In this document: piece by piece, positions 26,059 to 44,924 of the stretch
How the letters are laid out: the number at the start of each line of letters is the position of its first letter
How positions within the stretch are numbered: the first letter of the stretch is position 1
From: Escherichia coli
GTDB lineage: Bacteria; Pseudomonadota; Gammaproteobacteria; Enterobacterales; Enterobacteriaceae
NCBI RefSeq assembly: GCF_003790525.1
Contig: NZ_CP033635.1
Length of the DNA stretch: 64,000 nucleotides
Strand: one strand, 5' to 3'
Program-made: the position numbers and the translations under genes
The notes under the pieces: model-generated
Told to the model about the DNA's origin: nothing
What the model saw: only the letters and a program-made list of their open reading frames with translations
The model's database searches: none

Positions 26059-26204
26059 ACGTATTCGCTCAGGCAGGGGGCGCTGGTTGGGAACTCAACG
26101 TTGGCATGGTTTCGCTGCTCTTGTGTAGATGTGTTGCAGTTATTTGCGACATTCCGCCGGAGTAGCGGAACTATGGAAAACGGCAATTGGCGCTCTTATC
26201 CCTT

Positions 26205-26236
26205 AGCTTTGTAAGGCTTAATTTTGGTAGAATGGG
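26205..26236 (+). promoter_or_regulatory. Candidate sigma70 promoter with extended -10 (TGgTAGAAT) for the AT-rich two-gene module
   Basis: TGGTAGAAT at 26225-26233 seen directly; the -35 is weak (TTGTAA or TTAGCT with non-ideal spacing). Confidence 0.35.
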
Positions 26237-26264
26237 GAATCGTTTAACGGAAAAAAACAATCAG

Positions 26265-26759
26265 ATGATTTCTTTTCTATCCGATGAATTTGAGGAATTT
26301 CCGCAGGGAGATTTTTTAAATCATCTCTATAGGTTTTCGGTAGACCATCATCATTTTATCGTGATATTTAGCCCTATTGATATTAGCGATGCGGAGTACC
26401 ATCAATACCGTAGCGAGGAAGTTGGATTTGAAATCCCAACTAATTGTTTTGATGTGAAATTTGATAGGCAAGAAAACTTTGATAGTGGTAACTTTTACAT
26501 GCCCCCCGCCGCAACTGAATGCTCGAGGCGCAGACGCTTTACTGATGAACTCGCAGAGGCGCTAGCAACGATTATTGAAAAGCATTACATCATTTATCAT
26601 GCCAGGGCTTATCTTGCCATCGCAGAGAATGACAAGTTGAAACGTTACTATGACCGGATTTTACACAATGCCCCGGCTAATGTAGCATATAGAGTAATCA
26701 AAGATGTTGGAGAGGAGGAACGAGGTTATGCCATACAAACCGAATGTTTCCGAACTTAA
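26265..26759 (+). CDS. Hypothetical acidic protein (~164 aa from ATG 26265; alternative starts 26232 or 26187), no recognised domain
   Basis: Single long ORF in an AT-rich (~40% GC by eye) segment; MISFLSDEFEEFPQGDFLNHLYRF...; no motif I recognise; start ambiguous, weak RBS. Confidence 0.6.
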   Translation: MISFLSDEFEEFPQGDFLNHLYRFSVDHHHFIVIFSPIDISDAEYHQYRSEEVGFEIPTNCFDVKFDRQENFDSGNFYMPPAATECSRRRRFTDELAEALATIIEKHYIIYHARAYLAIAENDKLKRYYDRILHNAPANVAYRVIKDVGEEERGYAIQTECFRT

Positions 26760-26874
26760 GAAAATGACTGTTGCAGAGCGCAAGAAAGAAGCCATGCGCC
26801 AGCTTAAAGCATCCTTTGAGCGCGCCAGCATTGAAGGGACTTTGCATAAACGCTCTGCAAAGTCTGTTGCGTAA
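26728..26874 (+). CDS. Hypothetical small basic protein (48 aa), overlaps the 3' end of the preceding ORF by 32 nt in another frame
   Basis: Strong RBS GAGGAGG 7-13 nt upstream of ATG 26728; MPYKPNVSELKKMTVAERKKEAMRQLKASFERASIEGTLHKRSAKSVA; below the ORF-track length cutoff, found by reading. Confidence 0.5.
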   Translation: MPYKPNVSELKKMTVAERKKEAMRQLKASFERASIEGTLHKRSAKSVA

Positions 26875-26914: not shown

Positions 26915-27095
26915 CCCTCAGAAAATCCCCTCTGACCTGCCTCAGGGATTATATACAACCTTCAGTTAATTAGCTGCGCACCATACGCGGCCCGAGCCTT
27001 ATCGCCTTGTTCAAATTCGACAATTCGTCGGCCAATTTCCCCGAACGTCGCGGTGCTAAGTACCGTATCCGTCCGGGCGTATCCGGCCAGAATTT

Positions 27096-28265
27096 TCAGG
27101 CGGTTTCTCTTGCTGTCACTACGCCATTTTGCGCAGCCCACAGATTCACATCTTCCTTACGAATGGCGGCGGCCATCATGCCGGGGAATAAATCTGGGGT
27201 ACAGGCAAAGGAGGGAATACCCATGGCGGCGAGTTTTCCTGCCAGTGACCGGTCGTAAAACGGCGCACCTTCATCGCTTAAGGCCAGCAGGGTAACCACC
27301 TGTACGCCGGACTGAATCAACTCACTGGCGCGTTGCAACAGATTGCGTTCCACCCCGCCTTCGTAGAGGTCGGAAATCAGCACCAGAATGGTATTGCGCG
27401 GATCGCGAATCAAAGACTGGCAGTAGCCCACCGCGCGGTTGATGTCGGTGCCGCCACCCAGCTGTACGCCAAACAGCAGCTCTACCGGATCGTCGAGCTT
27501 CTCTGTCATATCAACGACTGCGGTGTCGAAAACCACCAGATGCGTTTTTACCGCCGGGAGCGATGCCATTACTGCGCCAAAAATACTGGAATAGACCACC
27601 GAGGAGGCCATCGACCCACTCTGGTCGATACATAAAATGATCTCCTTTTGCGTGCGTTGAGACTTGCGCCCGTAGCCGATCAGCGTTTCAGGAACAATAC
27701 TTTTATACTCTTCCTGCCAGTGGCGCAGGTTGGCGCGAATGGTGCGCTGCCAGTCAATTTCCGCGTGGCGCGGGCGACGATTACGTACCGCACGATTAAG
27801 AGCGCCGCTTACCGCGCTACGCATTGGCTCTTCAAGCTGTTTCATCAATTGCTCGACAACTTTACGCACCACAAGCCTGGCGGTTTCTTTGGTTTTGGCC
27901 GGAATTACGCCATTCAGCGACATCAGCGTGGAGACCAGATGAACATCAGGCTGGACGTTTGCCAGCATCTCCGGCTCCAGCAACATACTGTGCAAATTAA
28001 GACGTTCAAAGGCGTCTTTTTGCATCACCTGAACCACAGAAGAAGGGAAATACTGGCGAATATCACCCAGCCAGCGAGCGACTTTGGGTGACGATCCACC
28101 CGTGCCGCCGCGTAATCCATGTTTACCCTCTGGCTGATACAGCGCCGCCAGCGCGGCATCAATCGCGGACTCTCTGGCATCCAGCGCCACGTTACAGGCA
28201 TTGTCGGCATCTTCTCCAAGGATCAGACGCCAGCGGCGCAGCCGTTCCATTTCGTTACTCGACAT
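27096..28265 (-). CDS. von Willebrand factor A (VWA) domain protein with complete MIDAS motif (389 aa); fifth gene of novel operon
   Basis: DQSGSM (DxSxS), GGGTD and LISDLYEGG motifs seen in the translation; start overlaps the upstream gene's stop by 11 nt. Confidence 0.85.
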   Translation of the reverse strand: MSSNEMERLRRWRLILGEDADNACNVALDARESAIDAALAALYQPEGKHGLRGGTGGSSPKVARWLGDIRQYFPSSVVQVMQKDAFERLNLHSMLLEPEMLANVQPDVHLVSTLMSLNGVIPAKTKETARLVVRKVVEQLMKQLEEPMRSAVSGALNRAVRNRRPRHAEIDWQRTIRANLRHWQEEYKSIVPETLIGYGRKSQRTQKEIILCIDQSGSMASSVVYSSIFGAVMASLPAVKTHLVVFDTAVVDMTEKLDDPVELLFGVQLGGGTDINRAVGYCQSLIRDPRNTILVLISDLYEGGVERNLLQRASELIQSGVQVVTLLALSDEGAPFYDRSLAGKLAAMGIPSFACTPDLFPGMMAAAIRKEDVNLWAAQNGVVTARETA

Positions 28266-30504
28266 GATTTTCCCTTTCGTGTGGTGGCAAAGCCAGAATG
28301 CGGCGCAGTAGCGGCAGCATTAACGCGGCACGCTGTTCATCCCATATACCGCTGGTCTCTTCTTGCTGCGCGACACGCTCGCCCTGCGCGGCGCGTTCGC
28401 CTAACTGGCGGCGTTCCGGGCTGGAAAAACGGCCGAATGTCCGCCGCAGCATCGGCAGGATCCGGGTGAAGTGATTGTCGTTCAGGCCGCTTAGCCAGGC
28501 ATCGATCAACTGCCATAATTCGCTATTGTGCAGTAGCACCATCGCGCTGTCGTTGAGGAAACCTTCCGCCCATGCGGCACTTTCCGCCGGGGGATTGGCT
28601 GGCGATAGCGCCAGGTTCATCAGCGTGCTGATCCGTTCTGTCGTTAACGTTTGCAGATCAAACAACAGGCGCGTCGCCGTTCCGCGAAGCAGCGCGTGTG
28701 CGGTACTGCCCTCTGCCAGCACCATCAACGCCTGCAACCAGCCCGCCAATAGATCTTCGTTATCCAGCAACCGCAGCGCGGCGTGGGCGTCGATAACTTT
28801 TTCTCTCATACTGGCGGCGCTGTCGTCGTTGAGCGCCGAACAGGCTCCGGGTAGGGCGATGGCGGCGCGCGGGGCGAGGCTCATCAGTACCTGCATTACC
28901 ATACCAGAGTCGGTCTGGCGCACGTTGCCGTAGCGGACAATCGCCACCAGTGGTGCCAGGGCTTCCAGCAACTGTTCGATATTGCCCTGAGTGGCAGCCA
29001 GTGATTCCAGTGTATTGGCGATGGGGGCAATCGCGGTCTGTAAATCGGCCAGTAGCACCTGTTGGATAAGCTTTGCCAGTTCCGGCAGCGTGCTGGCGTA
29101 TTGCGCCCTCACAATGGCATAGCGGGAGCTGGCCTGCTCAATGCTGTTACCCCAACGGCTGGCGGTAATGATGTTGATTGCCAGTGCCGGTTCCCAGCGC
29201 AGCGACCAGACTTCGTGGAACGTCCCTTTGCTGTTATTTCCTTGTCCAGCCAGACGGCCCCAGGAAATGTCGAGTAAGGTCAGGCGATGCAGTAAATGGC
29301 TACGCGCCAGATCGCCGGGTTTGCGCAGATCAAGATCCAGCACTTTTTCGCTGGCTTCTGCCTTCAGGCGCAGCGTTTTTTGCTGTTGCGTAATGTCGCG
29401 TTGGAGCGGCACGACGGGCGTATCATCCGGTACGCTTCCCAGCGCGTCGCCGACAATTAACTTCTGGCGAATCATCTGCATTGGCGCGCTTTCGCCCATA
29501 CACACTACGGTTTGCAGCGCTTCGCAAAGTTCGTCAAGCCCCGGCTGCGGGTGATGGCGCATAATCGCCAGCGTCTGCGCCAGCCGCGCCGCTTCGATAA
29601 TGTGGGCGCTGGAACAGTCGAGATCGGCTTCGCGAAACAGCCTTGCCGCGCGTGACAGCCAGCCGATATCGCGGTGAGAAGCGCCCTGATAACGCCACAG
29701 ATGATCGTACCATTCCGGTGACACCACCCCTGCGCCATAACCGCTGGCGCGGCTTAACGCCTCGTAGCTCCAGGGCGTCCAGGCTGCCGCGACCTTGCAC
29801 TTCGGCAAATTTTTCAGCAGTTCGTTATCATTCTTTGCGGGCGGCAGGTTTTCCAGCGCCGGAACGTGCCACGCACCGCAGACTACCGCGATGCGCGAGA
29901 AGCCCTCTTTTTTCGCCTGACGTAGCGTCTTGCGCATATACGCTTCACGCAGTTGATCTCTGGCTGAGTTTCGGGCTTCGGGAGTTGCCTGGCGTAGGGC
30001 AATCATCGCCTCGCGAATCGCCTCGAACAGAGACAAATCATCTTCGCGTTCCTCTACTCTGTGGCTCCACCAGCTTTCCCCATCGGTGTAACCGGCGGCG
30101 CGGCCCAGCCAGTCCAGCGGATCGCCGTCGGGACTGGCTTCAACGGCATCATCGTCATCGCTCTCTTTTTCGTCATCAAGCGCGAACTGATGACTGATGG
30201 GCAAGTCCATAAAGCGCACGGCGATATTTTGCTCAAAACCATAGCGCAGCGCCTGCCATTCCGGGGAGAACGCCGCAAAGGGGTAAAACGCGGCGTGATG
30301 TGAGTCGTCCGGGGCATAAATCAGTAGCGCGACCGGCGGTTGCATCTGTTCATGCTGCATAAAAGGCAGGATGGATTCGCCGTCGGGCGGCCCTTCCACC
30401 AGCAGGCAGTCGGGCTGTAGCGTCTCCAGCGCCTTTCGCAGGCTGCGCGCGCAGCCAGGGCCATGGTGACGGATGCCAAACAAATGAACGGTTTGTTCAG
30501 TCAT
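28255..30504 (-). CDS. Large hypothetical protein (749 aa), no motif recognised; fourth gene of novel operon
   Basis: Uninterrupted 2.25-kb ORF; AAGG RBS in the 17-nt gap after the AAA+ gene; acidic stretch DDEKESDDDDAVEASPDGD; helical Leu/Ala-rich C-terminal half. Confidence 0.8.
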   Translation of the reverse strand: MTEQTVHLFGIRHHGPGCARSLRKALETLQPDCLLVEGPPDGESILPFMQHEQMQPPVALLIYAPDDSHHAAFYPFAAFSPEWQALRYGFEQNIAVRFMDLPISHQFALDDEKESDDDDAVEASPDGDPLDWLGRAAGYTDGESWWSHRVEEREDDLSLFEAIREAMIALRQATPEARNSARDQLREAYMRKTLRQAKKEGFSRIAVVCGAWHVPALENLPPAKNDNELLKNLPKCKVAAAWTPWSYEALSRASGYGAGVVSPEWYDHLWRYQGASHRDIGWLSRAARLFREADLDCSSAHIIEAARLAQTLAIMRHHPQPGLDELCEALQTVVCMGESAPMQMIRQKLIVGDALGSVPDDTPVVPLQRDITQQQKTLRLKAEASEKVLDLDLRKPGDLARSHLLHRLTLLDISWGRLAGQGNNSKGTFHEVWSLRWEPALAINIITASRWGNSIEQASSRYAIVRAQYASTLPELAKLIQQVLLADLQTAIAPIANTLESLAATQGNIEQLLEALAPLVAIVRYGNVRQTDSGMVMQVLMSLAPRAAIALPGACSALNDDSAASMREKVIDAHAALRLLDNEDLLAGWLQALMVLAEGSTAHALLRGTATRLLFDLQTLTTERISTLMNLALSPANPPAESAAWAEGFLNDSAMVLLHNSELWQLIDAWLSGLNDNHFTRILPMLRRTFGRFSSPERRQLGERAAQGERVAQQEETSGIWDEQRAALMLPLLRRILALPPHERENHVE

Positions 30505-30521
30505 AGTGGTTGCCTTGCTGA

Positions 30522-31616
30522 TTACACAATTTCGCGGCAGGCGCGATAGAGATCGTTCCAGTCGCTGCGCTCTTTGACTATAGTTTCCAGATATTCACGC
30601 CATACCACGTCGTCCTGCACGGGATCTTTTACCACCGCGCCGATAAGGCTTGCGGCGATATCCCGCGGATGTAGCACGCCGTCGCCAAAATGGCCCGCCA
30701 GCGCCATACCGTTGTTGATAACGGAGATCGCCTCCGCGGTGCTGAGAGTACTGGTTGGCGACTTAATTTTCGTTTTGCCGTCAACCGTCAGGCCGTTTCG
30801 CAGTTCGCGGAAGATTTGCACGACTCGCTGGATCTCTTTAAGCGCTGGCGGTTCGGCAGGAAGTGCCAGCGCCTGACCCAGTTCGGCGACGCGGCGAGTG
30901 ACAATGTTAATCTCTTCTTCTTCGCTGGCGGGTACGGGCAAAATGACCGTGTTGAAACGACGTTTAAGTGCGGAAGAAAGCTCGTTAACGCCTTTATCCC
31001 GGTTGTTGGCGGTGGCGATAACGTTAAAGCCGCGCGTCGCCTGGACCTCTTCATTCAGTTCGGGGATAGGCAGCGTTTTTTCCGACAGGATCGTGATCAG
31101 CGTGTCCTGAACATCGGCAGGAATACGCGTCAGCTCTTCTACGCGGGCAATCTGCCCGCGTGCCATCGCCCGCATCAATGGGCTTTCTACCAGCGCCGAA
31201 CGTGACGGACCTTTAGAGAGCAACTCCGCGTAGTTCCAGCCATAACGCATTTGTTCTTCACCGGTGCCTGCGGTGCCCTGAATAATTAACGTTGAGTCGC
31301 CGCTGATGGCAGCCGCCAGATGTTCAGAGACCCAGGATTTCGCAGTGCCGGGTACGCCATACAACAGCAGTGCGCGATCGGTTGCCAGCGTGGCAACGGC
31401 GGTTTCGATAATCCGCCTGTTGCCGATATATTTCGGCGTGACCTCAAAACCATTTTCCAGTTGCCCGCCTAACAGATAAGTAGCAACGGACCACGGAGAA
31501 ATAGCCCAGTTTTCCGGGCGCGGATGAGTATCGTTTTTTTGCAGCTCATCCAGTTCTTCTGCAAATTGTTGTTCGGCATGTCGGCGTAAAACGGCGGCAG
31601 TAGCGGTGGAAGTCAT
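30522..31616 (-). CDS. MoxR-like AAA+ ATPase (364 aa from ATG 31616); third gene of novel operon
   Basis: Walker A LLLYGVPGTAKS (GxPGxAKS, MoxR-type), Walker B-like IARVEELTRIPADVQ, sensor-1 NVIATANN, Arg finger LKRRF; ATG overlaps the upstream stop as ATGA. Confidence 0.85.
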   Translation of the reverse strand: MTSTATAAVLRRHAEQQFAEELDELQKNDTHPRPENWAISPWSVATYLLGGQLENGFEVTPKYIGNRRIIETAVATLATDRALLLYGVPGTAKSWVSEHLAAAISGDSTLIIQGTAGTGEEQMRYGWNYAELLSKGPSRSALVESPLMRAMARGQIARVEELTRIPADVQDTLITILSEKTLPIPELNEEVQATRGFNVIATANNRDKGVNELSSALKRRFNTVILPVPASEEEEINIVTRRVAELGQALALPAEPPALKEIQRVVQIFRELRNGLTVDGKTKIKSPTSTLSTAEAISVINNGMALAGHFGDGVLHPRDIAASLIGAVVKDPVQDDVVWREYLETIVKERSDWNDLYRACREIV

Positions 31617-33217
31617 AAAGTAGTTTCTCCGACAAAAAACGAATGAAGTTGAATTCGGTGCGCCAGCGTGGCGCTCAGGGCAGTAAAGGCTGCCTCGCAA
31701 TAAGGCGTTTGTTGTGCGTCATGCGGCCACTTGTCAATGACATCATTGAGGACTTCGGGGGCCAGCAGGCAGGCGAAATCACTCATCACATGGCGCAGGG
31801 CGTAGTCAAAGCGCGCGGAATCATGTTTCACCCAACGGTGCAGCTCCGTGACCATTTGCTGGCTCAGGCGCAGGCTAAAGAGCGACGCATCCAGCGGTAA
31901 CAGGGCGATGTAGCGTTGTAAATGTTCGCCGCCCATTACCGAGAACAGTAACGTCAACACTGGCTCGTGTTCTTCTACGGGCAGGCATTGCAGAAGCTCA
32001 AAGGCGTTAATCTTCACGCCAGCAGGGGAATGAATGCTTATTCCGACGGGGAGTAGGGCGAGGAATGCCTGCGCCCACTGTGGATTTTTTTCGCGCAGGA
32101 CGGCGTGATACCAGGCGCGCAGTAGCGCCTCCTGCCAGTCGGTTTTCCCGGCCCAGCGCAGCAGTTCAACGGGGGTAGCCTGCAGTTGCGTTTGCCACCA
32201 GTCGAGCGGAACCGCTGCAACTATCTGATACAGCCACCATGCGCGCTGGCCCAACTTTTCGCCTTTGGGCTTAGTTTCTTCCAGCGCATCGGCCTTCCAC
32301 TCTGGTAAGAACGCCTCCGGGGCATCAAGGGCGACGCGCAGCATTTTTTCTTTGCCGGATAAGCCTTTTAGCCTTTCAAGTAAGGTCTCAGGAGCGGGGG
32401 ATGAACTGAGCAACGGCGCTAACCGAGACTTCATGCGCGAGATCCAGGCGCTTTCCGGCAGACAACACAGTAACCGTGCCGCAGTTTGCCGCACCTCTTT
32501 GCTGCGATCGGATAATGTCTGTTCCAGAAAGGCTTCGTCGTGTTGGGAGATCCCCACTTCCAGCACAGCCAGCAGCTGTGCGCGTTCGCGGGCATCCAGC
32601 GAACTCATCTCCTGCGCCAGCCGATCGCGACCCTGTTCCGGGGCGCGAATGCGCATTTGCGTCAGATATTGCAGACGCTGTTCGGACGTGCCGTGCAGCC
32701 ACATTTCTTCATCCAGCGGAGCGTCAGTGGAGGCGAGAACATAGCCCCAATCGGCGTTGATTTGCGCCAGCCAGCACCCGCGAGCGCCCAGAACATTGGA
32801 CAGGATGCCGCGTAGAGATGGCTTTTGCGCTCCATAATTCAGCAATGCTGGTAACAGCAGGGGCGGAGGAAGAAGTTGACGACGGACCAATAGATCAAGC
32901 GCCGACCACAGCAACCGCGGCGGTCCTTCTGACAGCAGCAGATGCAGCAGTCCCGCAAAAGCCGGGTTGTTTATTGGCTCGGCATTTTCTTTATCGATTT
33001 CCGGCAGCGGTGCGGGGTCAATCGCCTGCGGCACCCAGCCAGCCAGATGGCAGAGCGCCAGAACGCCCGCCGAGCGCAGTAGCTGTTGCTCTGCGGATGT
33101 GTTATTCGCCAGTTCAGACAGTAACAGCCCAATCTCACTTTGCGACGCCGACGGTGTAAACGCTTTTTTGTCTGTGCCGAGTAGCGCTGTGCGGGTTAAA
33201 TTTTGCCATTCGTTCAT
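31613..33217 (-). CDS. Hypothetical alpha-helical Leu-rich protein (534 aa from ATG 33217; 541 aa if 33238); second gene of novel operon
   Basis: Long ORF; ATG at 33217 forms an ATGA overlap with the SWIM gene stop; Leu/Ala/Trp-rich repeat-like sequence; no catalytic motif recognised. Confidence 0.8.
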   Translation of the reverse strand: MNEWQNLTRTALLGTDKKAFTPSASQSEIGLLLSELANNTSAEQQLLRSAGVLALCHLAGWVPQAIDPAPLPEIDKENAEPINNPAFAGLLHLLLSEGPPRLLWSALDLLVRRQLLPPPLLLPALLNYGAQKPSLRGILSNVLGARGCWLAQINADWGYVLASTDAPLDEEMWLHGTSEQRLQYLTQMRIRAPEQGRDRLAQEMSSLDARERAQLLAVLEVGISQHDEAFLEQTLSDRSKEVRQTAARLLCCLPESAWISRMKSRLAPLLSSSPAPETLLERLKGLSGKEKMLRVALDAPEAFLPEWKADALEETKPKGEKLGQRAWWLYQIVAAVPLDWWQTQLQATPVELLRWAGKTDWQEALLRAWYHAVLREKNPQWAQAFLALLPVGISIHSPAGVKINAFELLQCLPVEEHEPVLTLLFSVMGGEHLQRYIALLPLDASLFSLRLSQQMVTELHRWVKHDSARFDYALRHVMSDFACLLAPEVLNDVIDKWPHDAQQTPYCEAAFTALSATLAHRIQLHSFFVGETTL

Positions 33218-34536
33218 TGTGCGCCTCCGGTTGCCCAAATGACGCTACCGGCAAGCCAGGCGCTACAGGGCGTCAGCTGCTGACCATCCCATTCCCCCAT
33301 TAGCATAAACGGCGCGCCGCCGCTGGCCGCCAGTAACCGCCAACCCTCGTCCGACGACAGGTGCGTCGGTAAGTGCTGGCCCTGTGTCGAGACGAATCGC
33401 CAGCCGCTCTCGTGCGGGTAAATCAATATTTCGCTTACTCGCAGCGGCAGAGGCCATTGCCAGGGATTCGCGCTAAGCCGCTGCGCCATGTCATGCAGCG
33501 CGTCCGGGAGGGGTAATTCTGCAAGCGGGAATCTTTCACCGCGGGTAAACGGCTCCACAACCCGCGCCCGTAGCGGTGATGCGCCAGGGAAAAAGGCAAG
33601 CGCGCCCTGGCAGACTTGCCCGGTGATAAAGTGCTGGGGAAAGTTTTTACTACCGTGTGAATAGTCCAGCAGTAGCGCGGTGCGGTGGCTCTTTTCTCCG
33701 TACAGCCAGACCCGGCGTCGCCACAGATTATTCCCTTCTTGCGCGCTTTGACCTAAGACCTGCCAGTTATCGAGGCAGGTTAATCCGTCAGTGACGTCGT
33801 GTTTATCCGGGGGTATTCCCAATGCCGCATGGAGATCGCTAAGTTGTGCCGGGGATAACATTTGTTGCTGGCGCCAGGCGTCAATAATCAGCTGTAGCTG
33901 CCCCAGTTCTTTGCACAGGCTCGATGGCCATACCTCGGCGGTAGTAAAATGAGTGGTCAGATTGTTCAGGCGAGCGGCAATTCCCGGTAGTTGGGCGTCG
34001 ACCATGCGGGCGGCGATCCCGGCAAAAGGCAACTGTTGTGCAGAGATCTGCGCCAGACCGTGGCGGATCAGGTCGTGCATCCACTGTTCGAGGAAATCCA
34101 GCCCCGCCGTCATTTTTTGGTTGCGTGCCGCTTCCCGTTTGGCGGCAGCCTGCGGGTCGGCAGCTTTTGCCTCAGCCTGCTCTTTCTTCTCTTCTTTGCG
34201 AACCGCCCGCTGCTGGCGCGAGGTTAGCCACTCGCTTACCCATTCCGGCGGCTCGCCAGCGGTGAAACTTGCGGTGTGTTGCACCTGGAGAAAAAGCAAC
34301 GCAAGGCTATGTTTACAGGGGAATTTACGGCTGGGGCAGGAACATTTACAGGCCAGATCCTGTCTGTCGATTCGTACCTGATAAGGGCGGGAGCCGCTAC
34401 CTTTACACTCTCCCCAGAAGGCAGCCTCGCTATATCCGAGCGTCGGCCATTTTGCGGGAGCAACCAGGCCACGAGCCGCTTTAACCGAGGCGTCATCGGG
34501 CGCCAGGGCTTGCACTGATTCAACGGTCAGTTCCAT
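33214..34536 (-). CDS. SWIM zinc-finger domain protein (440 aa); first gene of novel operon
   Basis: CxCxnCxH signature at residues 63-76 (ACKCSCPSRKFPCKHSLALLF); first ORF downstream of gltD on the same strand. Confidence 0.85.
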   Translation of the reverse strand: MELTVESVQALAPDDASVKAARGLVAPAKWPTLGYSEAAFWGECKGSGSRPYQVRIDRQDLACKCSCPSRKFPCKHSLALLFLQVQHTASFTAGEPPEWVSEWLTSRQQRAVRKEEKKEQAEAKAADPQAAAKREAARNQKMTAGLDFLEQWMHDLIRHGLAQISAQQLPFAGIAARMVDAQLPGIAARLNNLTTHFTTAEVWPSSLCKELGQLQLIIDAWRQQQMLSPAQLSDLHAALGIPPDKHDVTDGLTCLDNWQVLGQSAQEGNNLWRRRVWLYGEKSHRTALLLDYSHGSKNFPQHFITGQVCQGALAFFPGASPLRARVVEPFTRGERFPLAELPLPDALHDMAQRLSANPWQWPLPLRVSEILIYPHESGWRFVSTQGQHLPTHLSSDEGWRLLAASGGAPFMLMGEWDGQQLTPCSAWLAGSVIWATGGAQ

Positions 34537-34649
34537 TACAATTCTCTATTGGCGTGGGGAAATCGATGGGGTCAAGGAGGCGTTAAGCAAAGCAGGAGGA
34601 GACTGTTTTCCGTAACAGCGTATTGCGCGTCCATCGCAAATTTGTAGTG

Positions 34650-34679
34650 AGTATAGCGGGCGGTAAATTCAGGAAACAA
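34650..34679 (-). promoter_or_regulatory. Candidate sigma70 promoter for the five-gene operon (-35 TTGTTT, 18-bp spacer, -10 TATACT on minus strand)
   Basis: Hexamers read on the reverse complement ~115-140 nt upstream of the SWIM start codon; heuristic only. Confidence 0.3.
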
Positions 34680-34721
34680 TGGCGGATAGCGGAAAGTGTA
34701 GTTTTTCGGAAAAAGATAACT

Positions 34722-34760
34722 TTATCCCGTGTAACCCGTTTTAAGCGGGCTACACGGGAG
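34722..34760 (-). terminator. Hairpin downstream of gltD (candidate terminator or attenuator)
   Basis: Inverted repeat cccgtgtaacccg / cgggctacacggg 10-45 nt after the gltD stop; the trailing U-tract on the minus strand is interrupted. Confidence 0.4.
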
Positions 34761-34768
34761 GCTGCAAT

Positions 34769-36199
<1,431 letters not shown>

Positions 36200-44695: not shown

Positions 44696-44805
44696 CCCCG
44701 GCTAGACCGGGGTGCGCGAATACTGCGCCAACACCAGGGAAATCTTGGCTGCGCCGTAAATTATTATGATGAGTTACAAGGGCACAGCACTGTTTTTCAG
44801 GCCGC
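44687..44805 (-). ncRNA. arcZ: Small regulatory RNA ArcZ (SraH/RyhA), convergent with arcB and overlapping its 3' end
   Basis: Reverse complement reads GTGCGGCCTGAAAAACAGTGCTGTGCCC...GGCGCAGTATTCGCGCACCCCGGTCTAGCCGGGGTCATTTTTT, matching the recalled ArcZ sequence and terminator. Confidence 0.8.
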
Positions 44806-44924
44806 ACGCAGTTAAGATAGCAAAACTTAAATGATTTGTTACATGAATCAGTTAAATGTGTGATGCGTAGCATTTTTATTAAAAAAATTAATGTGTTTCA
44901 GTCAATTGCGAAAGGATGATCACA

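Follow-up and report, generated by a model that had tools for sequence, protein, structure and literature searches.

What is a leucine-rich, helical protein doing between a SWIM zinc-finger protein and a MoxR-class AAA+ ATPase? The question is raised by a cluster in the DNA of Escherichia coli (contig NZ_CP033635.1, assembly GCF_003790525.1), in which the gene concerned occupies positions 31613-33217 on the minus strand of the window, by which we mean the whole 64,000-nucleotide (nt) stretch that was analysed. The initial annotation of this stretch had described the gene as an extra open reading frame (ORF) of 534 amino acids (aa), inserted into a cluster of an architecture distinct from that of the yeh type. 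Our findings indicate that the gene is not an insertion. It encodes a member of the DUF5691 family and takes the usual second place in an operon of five genes that recurs across many phyla of bacteria. We propose, with a probability of roughly 0.55, that DUF5691 is a non-catalytic adaptor or scaffold that joins the SWIM protein in the variable recognition module of a MoxR-VWA machine.

The 534-aa ORF between the SWIM and AAA+ genes was confirmed, with its start at the ATG at 33217. A mechanical reading of the frame extends 21 nt further, to an upstream TTG at 33238 (541 aa), and the ATG is preferred because it is the RefSeq start and because homologues align from residues 1-7. The protein is acidic (pI 5.7) and contains 17.6% leucine, in accordance with its first description, and it matches the Pfam family DUF5691 (PF18944) with E=1.2e-122, residues 7-526 aligning with positions 2-489 of the 491 in the model. 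It is an intact, ordinary and already annotated member of this catalogued family: RefSeq, in which all five genes of the cluster are annotated, names it 'DUF5691 domain-containing protein', and its UniProt entry is B1LGI1. Among cluster representatives at 50% identity we found 3,942 relatives at E<=1e-3, of which 2,948 remain at E<=1e-10, in Beta- and Gammaproteobacteria, Desulfovibrionia, Cyanobacteria, Bacteroidota, Actinobacteria, Verrucomicrobia, Acidobacteria, Chloroflexota and other taxa. The full-length Pfam match, these relatives, and six E. coli alleles of equal length with ratios of nonsynonymous to synonymous divergence (dN/dS) of 0.25-0.56 place the ORF far beyond chance. Scans with NCBIfam, PADLOC and PHROGs returned no specific match to DUF5691 or to the SWIM protein and only generic P-loop matches to the ATPase, and neither DUF5691 nor the DUF5682 protein of the cluster had a relative in the PDB by sequence or profile search.

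The five genes lie adjacent on the minus strand in the order SWIM, DUF5691, AAA_5, DUF5682, VWA_CoxE, and their Pfam labels bear out the order of SWIM, helical, AAA+, large and VWA genes that had been read from the sequence at the outset. The first gene (33214..34536) encodes a 440-aa protein, named 'SWIM zinc finger family protein' in RefSeq, with a Pfam SWIM match at residues 59-81 (E=2.4e-6); its motif C65-x-C67...C74-x-H76 precedes a charged linker, after which comes a C-terminal domain. The third gene (30522..31616) encodes a 364-aa, YehL-like AAA+ ATPase of the MoxR class (Pfam AAA_5, E=1.6e-38) with the Walker A motif GVPGTAKS and the Walker B residues R-V-E160-E161. Its nearest solved relatives are the AAA domains of Midasin and NorQ, and its match to Pfam bpMoxR is weak (E=3e-4). 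The AAA_5 domain, 41% identity to YehL over 350 residues and the VWA_CoxE gene in the operon place it in the YehL subfamily, an assignment made on sequence identity rather than phylogeny. The fourth gene (28255..30504) encodes a 749-aa DUF5682 protein (Pfam E=2.4e-268), and the fifth (27096..28265) a 389-aa VWA_CoxE protein (E=3.6e-52) in which the metal ion-dependent adhesion site (MIDAS) is intact, with D214-x-S216-x-S218, T273 and D299. The DUF5691 gene overlaps the SWIM and AAA+ genes by 4 bp each, both junctions reading ATGA, and the DUF5682 and VWA_CoxE genes overlap by 11 nt, an arrangement that fits a single, translationally coupled operon. The Walker A and B motifs, the MIDAS residues, the SWIM cysteines and histidine and the DUF5682 histidines and glutamates are invariant across 67 operons, and all are present in the window proteins. 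The operon's own promoter is presumed to lie in the 232 bp that separate the end of gltD from the start of the SWIM gene (34537..34768, minus strand), where a scan for the sigma-70 consensus did not find a minus-strand promoter. Against the PADLOC-DB 2.0 defence models the ATPase gave only weak IetA matches to its P-loop region (E ~1e-3) and the other four proteins gave none. Two PHROG families of unknown function were matched within the cluster, phrog_30700 by the DUF5682 protein (5e-35) and phrog_31592 by the VWA protein (3e-71).

The conservation of this arrangement was quantified in 86 loci, collected through look-ups of five relatives and then a scan of one genome per species that added 80 loci, and searched with the five window proteins. 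The exact order SWIM, DUF5691, AAA, DUF5682, VWA is kept on one strand in 68 of the 86, and nearly all the other loci are truncated at contig ends, split by frameshifts or affected by sorting artefacts of overlapping open frames. Some 80 of the 86 loci are collinear, and they come from Proteobacteria, Cyanobacteria, Verrucomicrobia and Acidobacteria; the identical five-gene order, with agreeing Pfam labels, was seen in Pelomonas, in the cyanobacterium Trichocoleus and in a second enterobacterium. In Streptomyces noursei (L006, 3131-11674) the five genes are adjacent and form two divergent units, a SWIM-like gene (493 aa) with DUF5691 facing AAA_5, an 880-aa DUF5682-like protein and VWA_CoxE, so that here too the partner of DUF5691 is the SWIM protein and not the ATPase. 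In a Hymenobacter locus, small genes labelled SMI1_KNR4/SUKH-type and DUF6985 by Pfam separate the AAA gene from the DUF5682 gene. The words 'extra' and 'inserted' accordingly do not describe the gene, which is the standard second gene of the operon and keeps its place across phyla; it belongs to a known operon with the order seen here, though it is not well characterised. A conserved sixth gene or client gene was sought on both flanks and none was found, the commonest flanking family occurring in at most 9 of ~74 loci. Compared between the five proteins, matrices of pairwise distance correlate with r=0.85-0.95, so that the cluster is inherited and transferred as a block; these mirror-tree correlations are high for every pair and cannot tell which proteins touch.

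The AlphaFold model of the DUF5691 protein is confident (pLDDT 92.5) and all-helical, an all-alpha solenoid with neither a catalytic fold nor membrane segments. A HEAT-like segment lies at about residues 178-270 and contains the motif D237-R-S-K-E-V-R...A..LL. Fold matches include HEAT proteins such as the CpcE/F lyases and MMS19, and superposition on HEAT/PBS-lyase-type alpha-solenoids (alphaRep designs, PP2A-A, AP-1 beta, CpcE/F and E. coli YibA) is partial, covering 94-215 of the 534 residues; outside the HEAT-like part the only fold matches are other DUF5691 proteins. Conservation is concentrated in a core at residues 120-390, in which many Trp, Arg and Asp residues are invariant, as are D227, E228 and D237 in particular, and the C-terminal third (391-534) is the variable, least conserved portion. 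The suggestion that a repeat-like helical protein might act as an adaptor or sensor is reasonable in so far as the protein is helical and has a HEAT-like repeat segment; its Pfam HEAT match (E=0.56) is below significance.

A link between DUF5691 and the SWIM protein is suggested by two fusions, P0172 (970 aa) and P0180 (1048 aa), in which a full-length SWIM protein is followed by a linker and then by DUF5691. Their SWIM parts are 37-41% identical to the window SWIM protein, and on the metagenomic contigs concerned the fusion gene is followed by AAA_5, DUF5682 and VWA. Each fusion comes from a single contig and may be an assembly artefact; the linkers of ~18 and ~38 residues make a simple frameshift at the ATGA overlap less likely. 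The same two proteins also stand at the fast end of a gradient in evolutionary rate. Across 73 complete loci, the median identity to the E. coli proteins falls from 78% for AAA and 72% for VWA to 51% for DUF5682, 44% for SWIM and 34.5% for DUF5691. Within E. coli the six DUF5691 alleles are identical in length and have no stops, the whole cluster is free of indels, and DUF5691 has the highest dN (0.02-0.05) with the dN/dS given above, against a dN/dS of 0-0.06 for the AAA gene and 0.03-0.16 for the VWA gene. Purifying selection acts on the DUF5691 gene, and the other four genes are all more tightly constrained. Comparison of 27096-34536 of the window with its counterparts in other strains (L092-L096) shows further variation along the cluster. 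When SMS-3-5 is set against CFIAFB20140388, identity is 92.9% for the DUF5691 gene (dS 0.16) and 98.5-99.3% for its four neighbours (dS 0.03), and between SMS-3-5 and 18KM2445 the AAA gene has a dS of 0.20 and the DUF5682 and VWA genes a dS of 0.01. This mosaic of dS suggests recombination breakpoints inside the operon.

The large protein of the operon offers a candidate output. The N-terminal domain of DUF5682 (~residues 1-250) has an alpha/beta fold with a parallel beta-sheet core, like that of the TIKI/TraB/ChaN proteins, and the C-terminal region is helical. This domain resembles TraB, ChaN, Ere-like proteins and HopBA1, all of which are members of the TIKI superfamily, with a catalytic motif of two histidines and two glutamates (PMC6254334). 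The invariant residues of DUF5682 (R12, H13, H14, E37, E82 and H213) are compatible with the TIKI 2His/2Glu motif plus a basic residue, as a match in residue type rather than a residue-level superposition on the TIKI site, and a Pfam scan of the protein gave no TraB or ChaN match. DUF5682 is probably the catalytic output of the machine, as a predicted hydrolase, or else its client.

Taken together, these findings lead us to a model of the operon in which the DUF5691 solenoid would bind the product of the gene immediately before it, the SWIM protein, and the pair would act as the rapidly changing part of the machine, devoted to recognition or regulation. ATP-driven remodelling would be the task of the MoxR hexamer and the MIDAS-bearing VWA protein, both of which evolve slowly, and DUF5682, with its TIKI/TraB-type N-terminal domain, would be the predicted hydrolase output or the client. 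A precedent for the concept exists in published MoxR-vWA systems that combine a peptidase effector with a sensor evolving at a high rate (PMC12839542). Several points weigh against this reading. The proposed binding of SWIM and DUF5691 is drawn from two single-contig fusions and from gene adjacency, and the fast evolution of DUF5691 may simply reflect weak constraint on a solenoid. The invariant Trp, Arg and Asp residues of the core could have to do with the binding of a ligand or nucleic acid, or with catalysis, in which case the protein would be more than a passive scaffold. The yehLMPQ operon of E. coli K-12, compared below, is a paralogue without DUF5691, which shows that DUF5691 is not a general requirement of a core of ATPase, VWA protein and DUF5682. 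Neither DUF5691 nor DUF5682 is mentioned in the literature searched, and searches on DUF5691, DUF5682, yehLMPQ and the combination of SWIM, MoxR and vWA did not find a functional study.

The main rival holds that the operon is a maturation or assembly chaperone like NorQ/NorD, CoxD/CoxE, CbbQ/CbbO and RavA/ViaA, in which DUF5691, instead of sensing, would scaffold the assembly of a client or hold it, the client being perhaps DUF5682 or a protein encoded elsewhere. MoxR proteins are in general described as chaperone-like maturation factors (PMC3893208), and here a MoxR-class ATPase with NorQ among its nearest solved relatives is accompanied by a CoxE-type VWA protein; the presence of CpcE/F and MMS19 among the fold matches of DUF5691 and the near-universal occurrence of yehM (5332 of 5426 E. 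coli genomes), which is more housekeeping-like than defence-like, point in the same direction. NorQD, CoxDE and CbbQO, however, adjoin their clients, whereas no conserved client gene adjoins this operon. The cluster is rare and patchy in E. coli (33 of 5426 genomes), and the strong rate gradient across its components would be unexpected of a system serving a fixed housekeeping client. We regard this explanation as unlikely. It seems a good deal less probable that DUF5691 is itself the substrate, a latent protein unfolded or released by the MoxR-VWA pair or cleaved by DUF5682. The fusion partner of DUF5691 is the SWIM protein, neither the ATPase nor the VWA protein, and its model contains nothing effector-like; what speaks for such a role is that VWA MIDAS sites usually grip an acidic client residue, the protein being acidic, and that its gene is immediately upstream of the ATPase gene and translationally coupled to it.

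At the other extremes of ambition stand two further proposals. The five genes may constitute a new class of MoxR-vWA conflict system, anti-invader or stress-triggered, in which SWIM and DUF5691 would sense a foreign or abnormal protein or nucleic acid and then license the MoxR/VWA motor to switch on DUF5682 as a TIKI-type hydrolase; were this so, DUF5691 would be a new kind of bacterial pattern-recognition solenoid. Predicted ternary 'counter-invader' systems of MoxR, vWA fused to peptidase effectors, and a rapidly evolving iSTAND/VMAP sensor have been described (PMC12839542; PMC10910872), and the operon resembles them in its MoxR and vWA core, in having a putative hydrolase, and in a candidate sensor that is non-catalytic and evolves rapidly. 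We consider this proposal unlikely. The differences from those systems are set out below. The opposite proposal, that the DUF5691 gene is decaying or has no function and is merely carried along in an island gained by horizontal transfer, could draw on the G+C content of the cluster (56-59%, against ~51% in its flanks), on its rarity in E. coli and on the fact that no sigma-70 consensus promoter was found upstream. It is close to refuted by the six intact alleles and their dN/dS, by the full-length Pfam match and confident model, and by a position kept across phyla.

The setting of the cluster in E. coli bears on its history. Positions 27000-34800 of the window are 100% identical to NC_010498.1 (E. 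coli SMS-3-5), and the DUF5691 gene is chromosomal in all 33 of the complete genomes that carry it. The cluster lies between gltD and nanQ, where K-12 has gltF-yhcA-yhcD-yhcE-yhcF-yhcG. At its distal edge a 123-bp yhcG remnant (DUF1016/PDDEXK nuclease; 26968..27090, minus strand), annotated as a pseudogene in RefSeq, marks the replaced gltF-yhcADEFG segment, and strains N96 and 2017-02-2CC have an intact yhcG after the cluster. In the enterobacterium GCA_048266505.1 (L003, 8598-16152) the cluster occupies the same gltD/nanQ site, with gltBD 85% identical at the DNA level; the cluster itself is 74.6% DNA-identical to 27000-34800 of the window and the flanking nan genes are 73-78% identical. Since the cluster has diverged about as far as the nan genes beside it, it may have occupied this site ancestrally, rather than through recent acquisition, and most E. 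coli may since have lost it or replaced it with gltF-yhcADEFG. The raised G+C of the cluster, 56-59%, is at odds with the view of an ancestral resident. Carriage of the cluster by phages or plasmids was considered and rejected: plasmid records contain almost no DUF5691 relatives, the DUF5691 query leading to five large non-mobilizable replicons, and the phage collection, which was searched with the DUF5682 protein rather than the DUF5691 protein, gave one phage-labelled contig. This contig, MT835988.1, is a 14-kb unannotated 'Bacteriophage sp.' sequence from human faeces that encodes a protein 30% identical to DUF5682, and it is probably a yeh-like bacterial fragment.

In some loci the operon is itself interrupted. 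Small, unrelated modules are inserted in it, usually between the AAA and DUF5682 genes, at L010 (11692-12358), L027 (11773-12439), L024 (13198-13817), L022 (11954-13971), L030 (9409-11080) and L008 (13072-15459). Read from their sequences, these comprise AbrB/PIN-type toxin-antitoxin pairs, a cytosine methyltransferase with a putative restriction enzyme, and an AbiEi/AbiEii-like pair. The slot between AAA and DUF5682 seems to tolerate or attract mobile defence-type cassettes, and insertions of toxin-antitoxin, restriction-modification and AbiE modules are weakly suggestive of a defence-island-like neighbourhood. Elsewhere in the window, two small hypothetical ORFs of 190 aa (26187-26759) and 48 aa (26728-26874) lie on the plus strand between the cluster and nanQ, the former without a match in a PHROG search, and the ArcZ small RNA (44700-44807, minus strand; Rfam RF00081, 120.8 bits) is found downstream of arcB, as expected in this region of E. 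coli.

Few ATP-driven machines of bacteria are at once as widespread and as poorly understood as the MoxR-VWA pairs, and to our knowledge no function has been assigned to the YehL subfamily. The DUF5691 operon, a 7.7-kb cassette in genetically tractable E. coli, offers a practical entry to YehL-type systems. What the present analysis adds is a measure of how well the operon is conserved, a rate gradient setting SWIM and DUF5691 apart as a variable module, the SWIM-DUF5691 fusions and the TIKI-like domain in DUF5682.

The closest known system is the yehLMPQ operon, YehL being one of seven MoxR subfamilies (PMC3893208). The order AAA+, large, VWA and SWIM given for it in the initial annotation is correct for K-12, where yehL (AAA), yehM, yehP (VWA) and yehQ (SWIM) follow yehF, yehH, yehI and yehK. 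The AAA, DUF5682 and VWA proteins of the window are 41%, 27% and 38% identical to YehL, YehM and YehP, respectively, RefSeq names YehM a DUF5682 family protein, and each operon has a SWIM zinc-finger protein. By these identities the two are paralogous operon types with a common three-gene core. They differ in that the SWIM gene is last in yeh and first in the DUF5691 operon, which does not follow the yeh order, in that yeh is preceded in K-12 by the DUF4132/WGR genes yehF, yehH and yehI, and in that yehM is core to E. coli whereas the DUF5691 gene is rare. The SWIM-family profile aligns with YehQ solely at the CxC..CxH motif, and not significantly. A counterpart of DUF5691 was sought in the yeh region with BLASTP and with a 60-sequence profile, against yehF, yehH, yehI, yehK, yehL, yehM, yehP and yehQ and three frames of the yehH pseudogene, and none was found. 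The possibility that DUF5691 is a diverged C-terminal part of YehQ, or a relative of YehI/MolR (DUF4132), was rejected by BLASTP, by profile search and by a Foldseek search of AFDB50. The distinct architecture claimed at the outset is upheld by the lack of DUF5691 in yeh and by the likeness of the SWIM proteins at the motif alone.

The predicted counter-invader systems differ from the operon in other respects. Its putative hydrolase, DUF5682, stands as a protein of its own instead of forming part of a vWA fusion, and its candidate sensor is a SWIM protein with a HEAT-like solenoid instead of an inactive STAND NTPase. Lacking a STAND protein, a fused peptidase and any specific PADLOC match, the DUF5691 operon falls outside that class. 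Its motor is shared more broadly. NorQ/NorD, CbbQ/CbbO, CoxD/CoxE, RavA/ViaA and eukaryotic Midasin (Rea1) all join an AAA_5/MoxR ATPase to a MIDAS-bearing VWA partner, as does the DUF5691 operon; whereas pairs of the NorQ/NorD type consist of two components beside a known client, the DUF5691 operon, with no conserved client gene, surrounds the same pair with three further conserved proteins.

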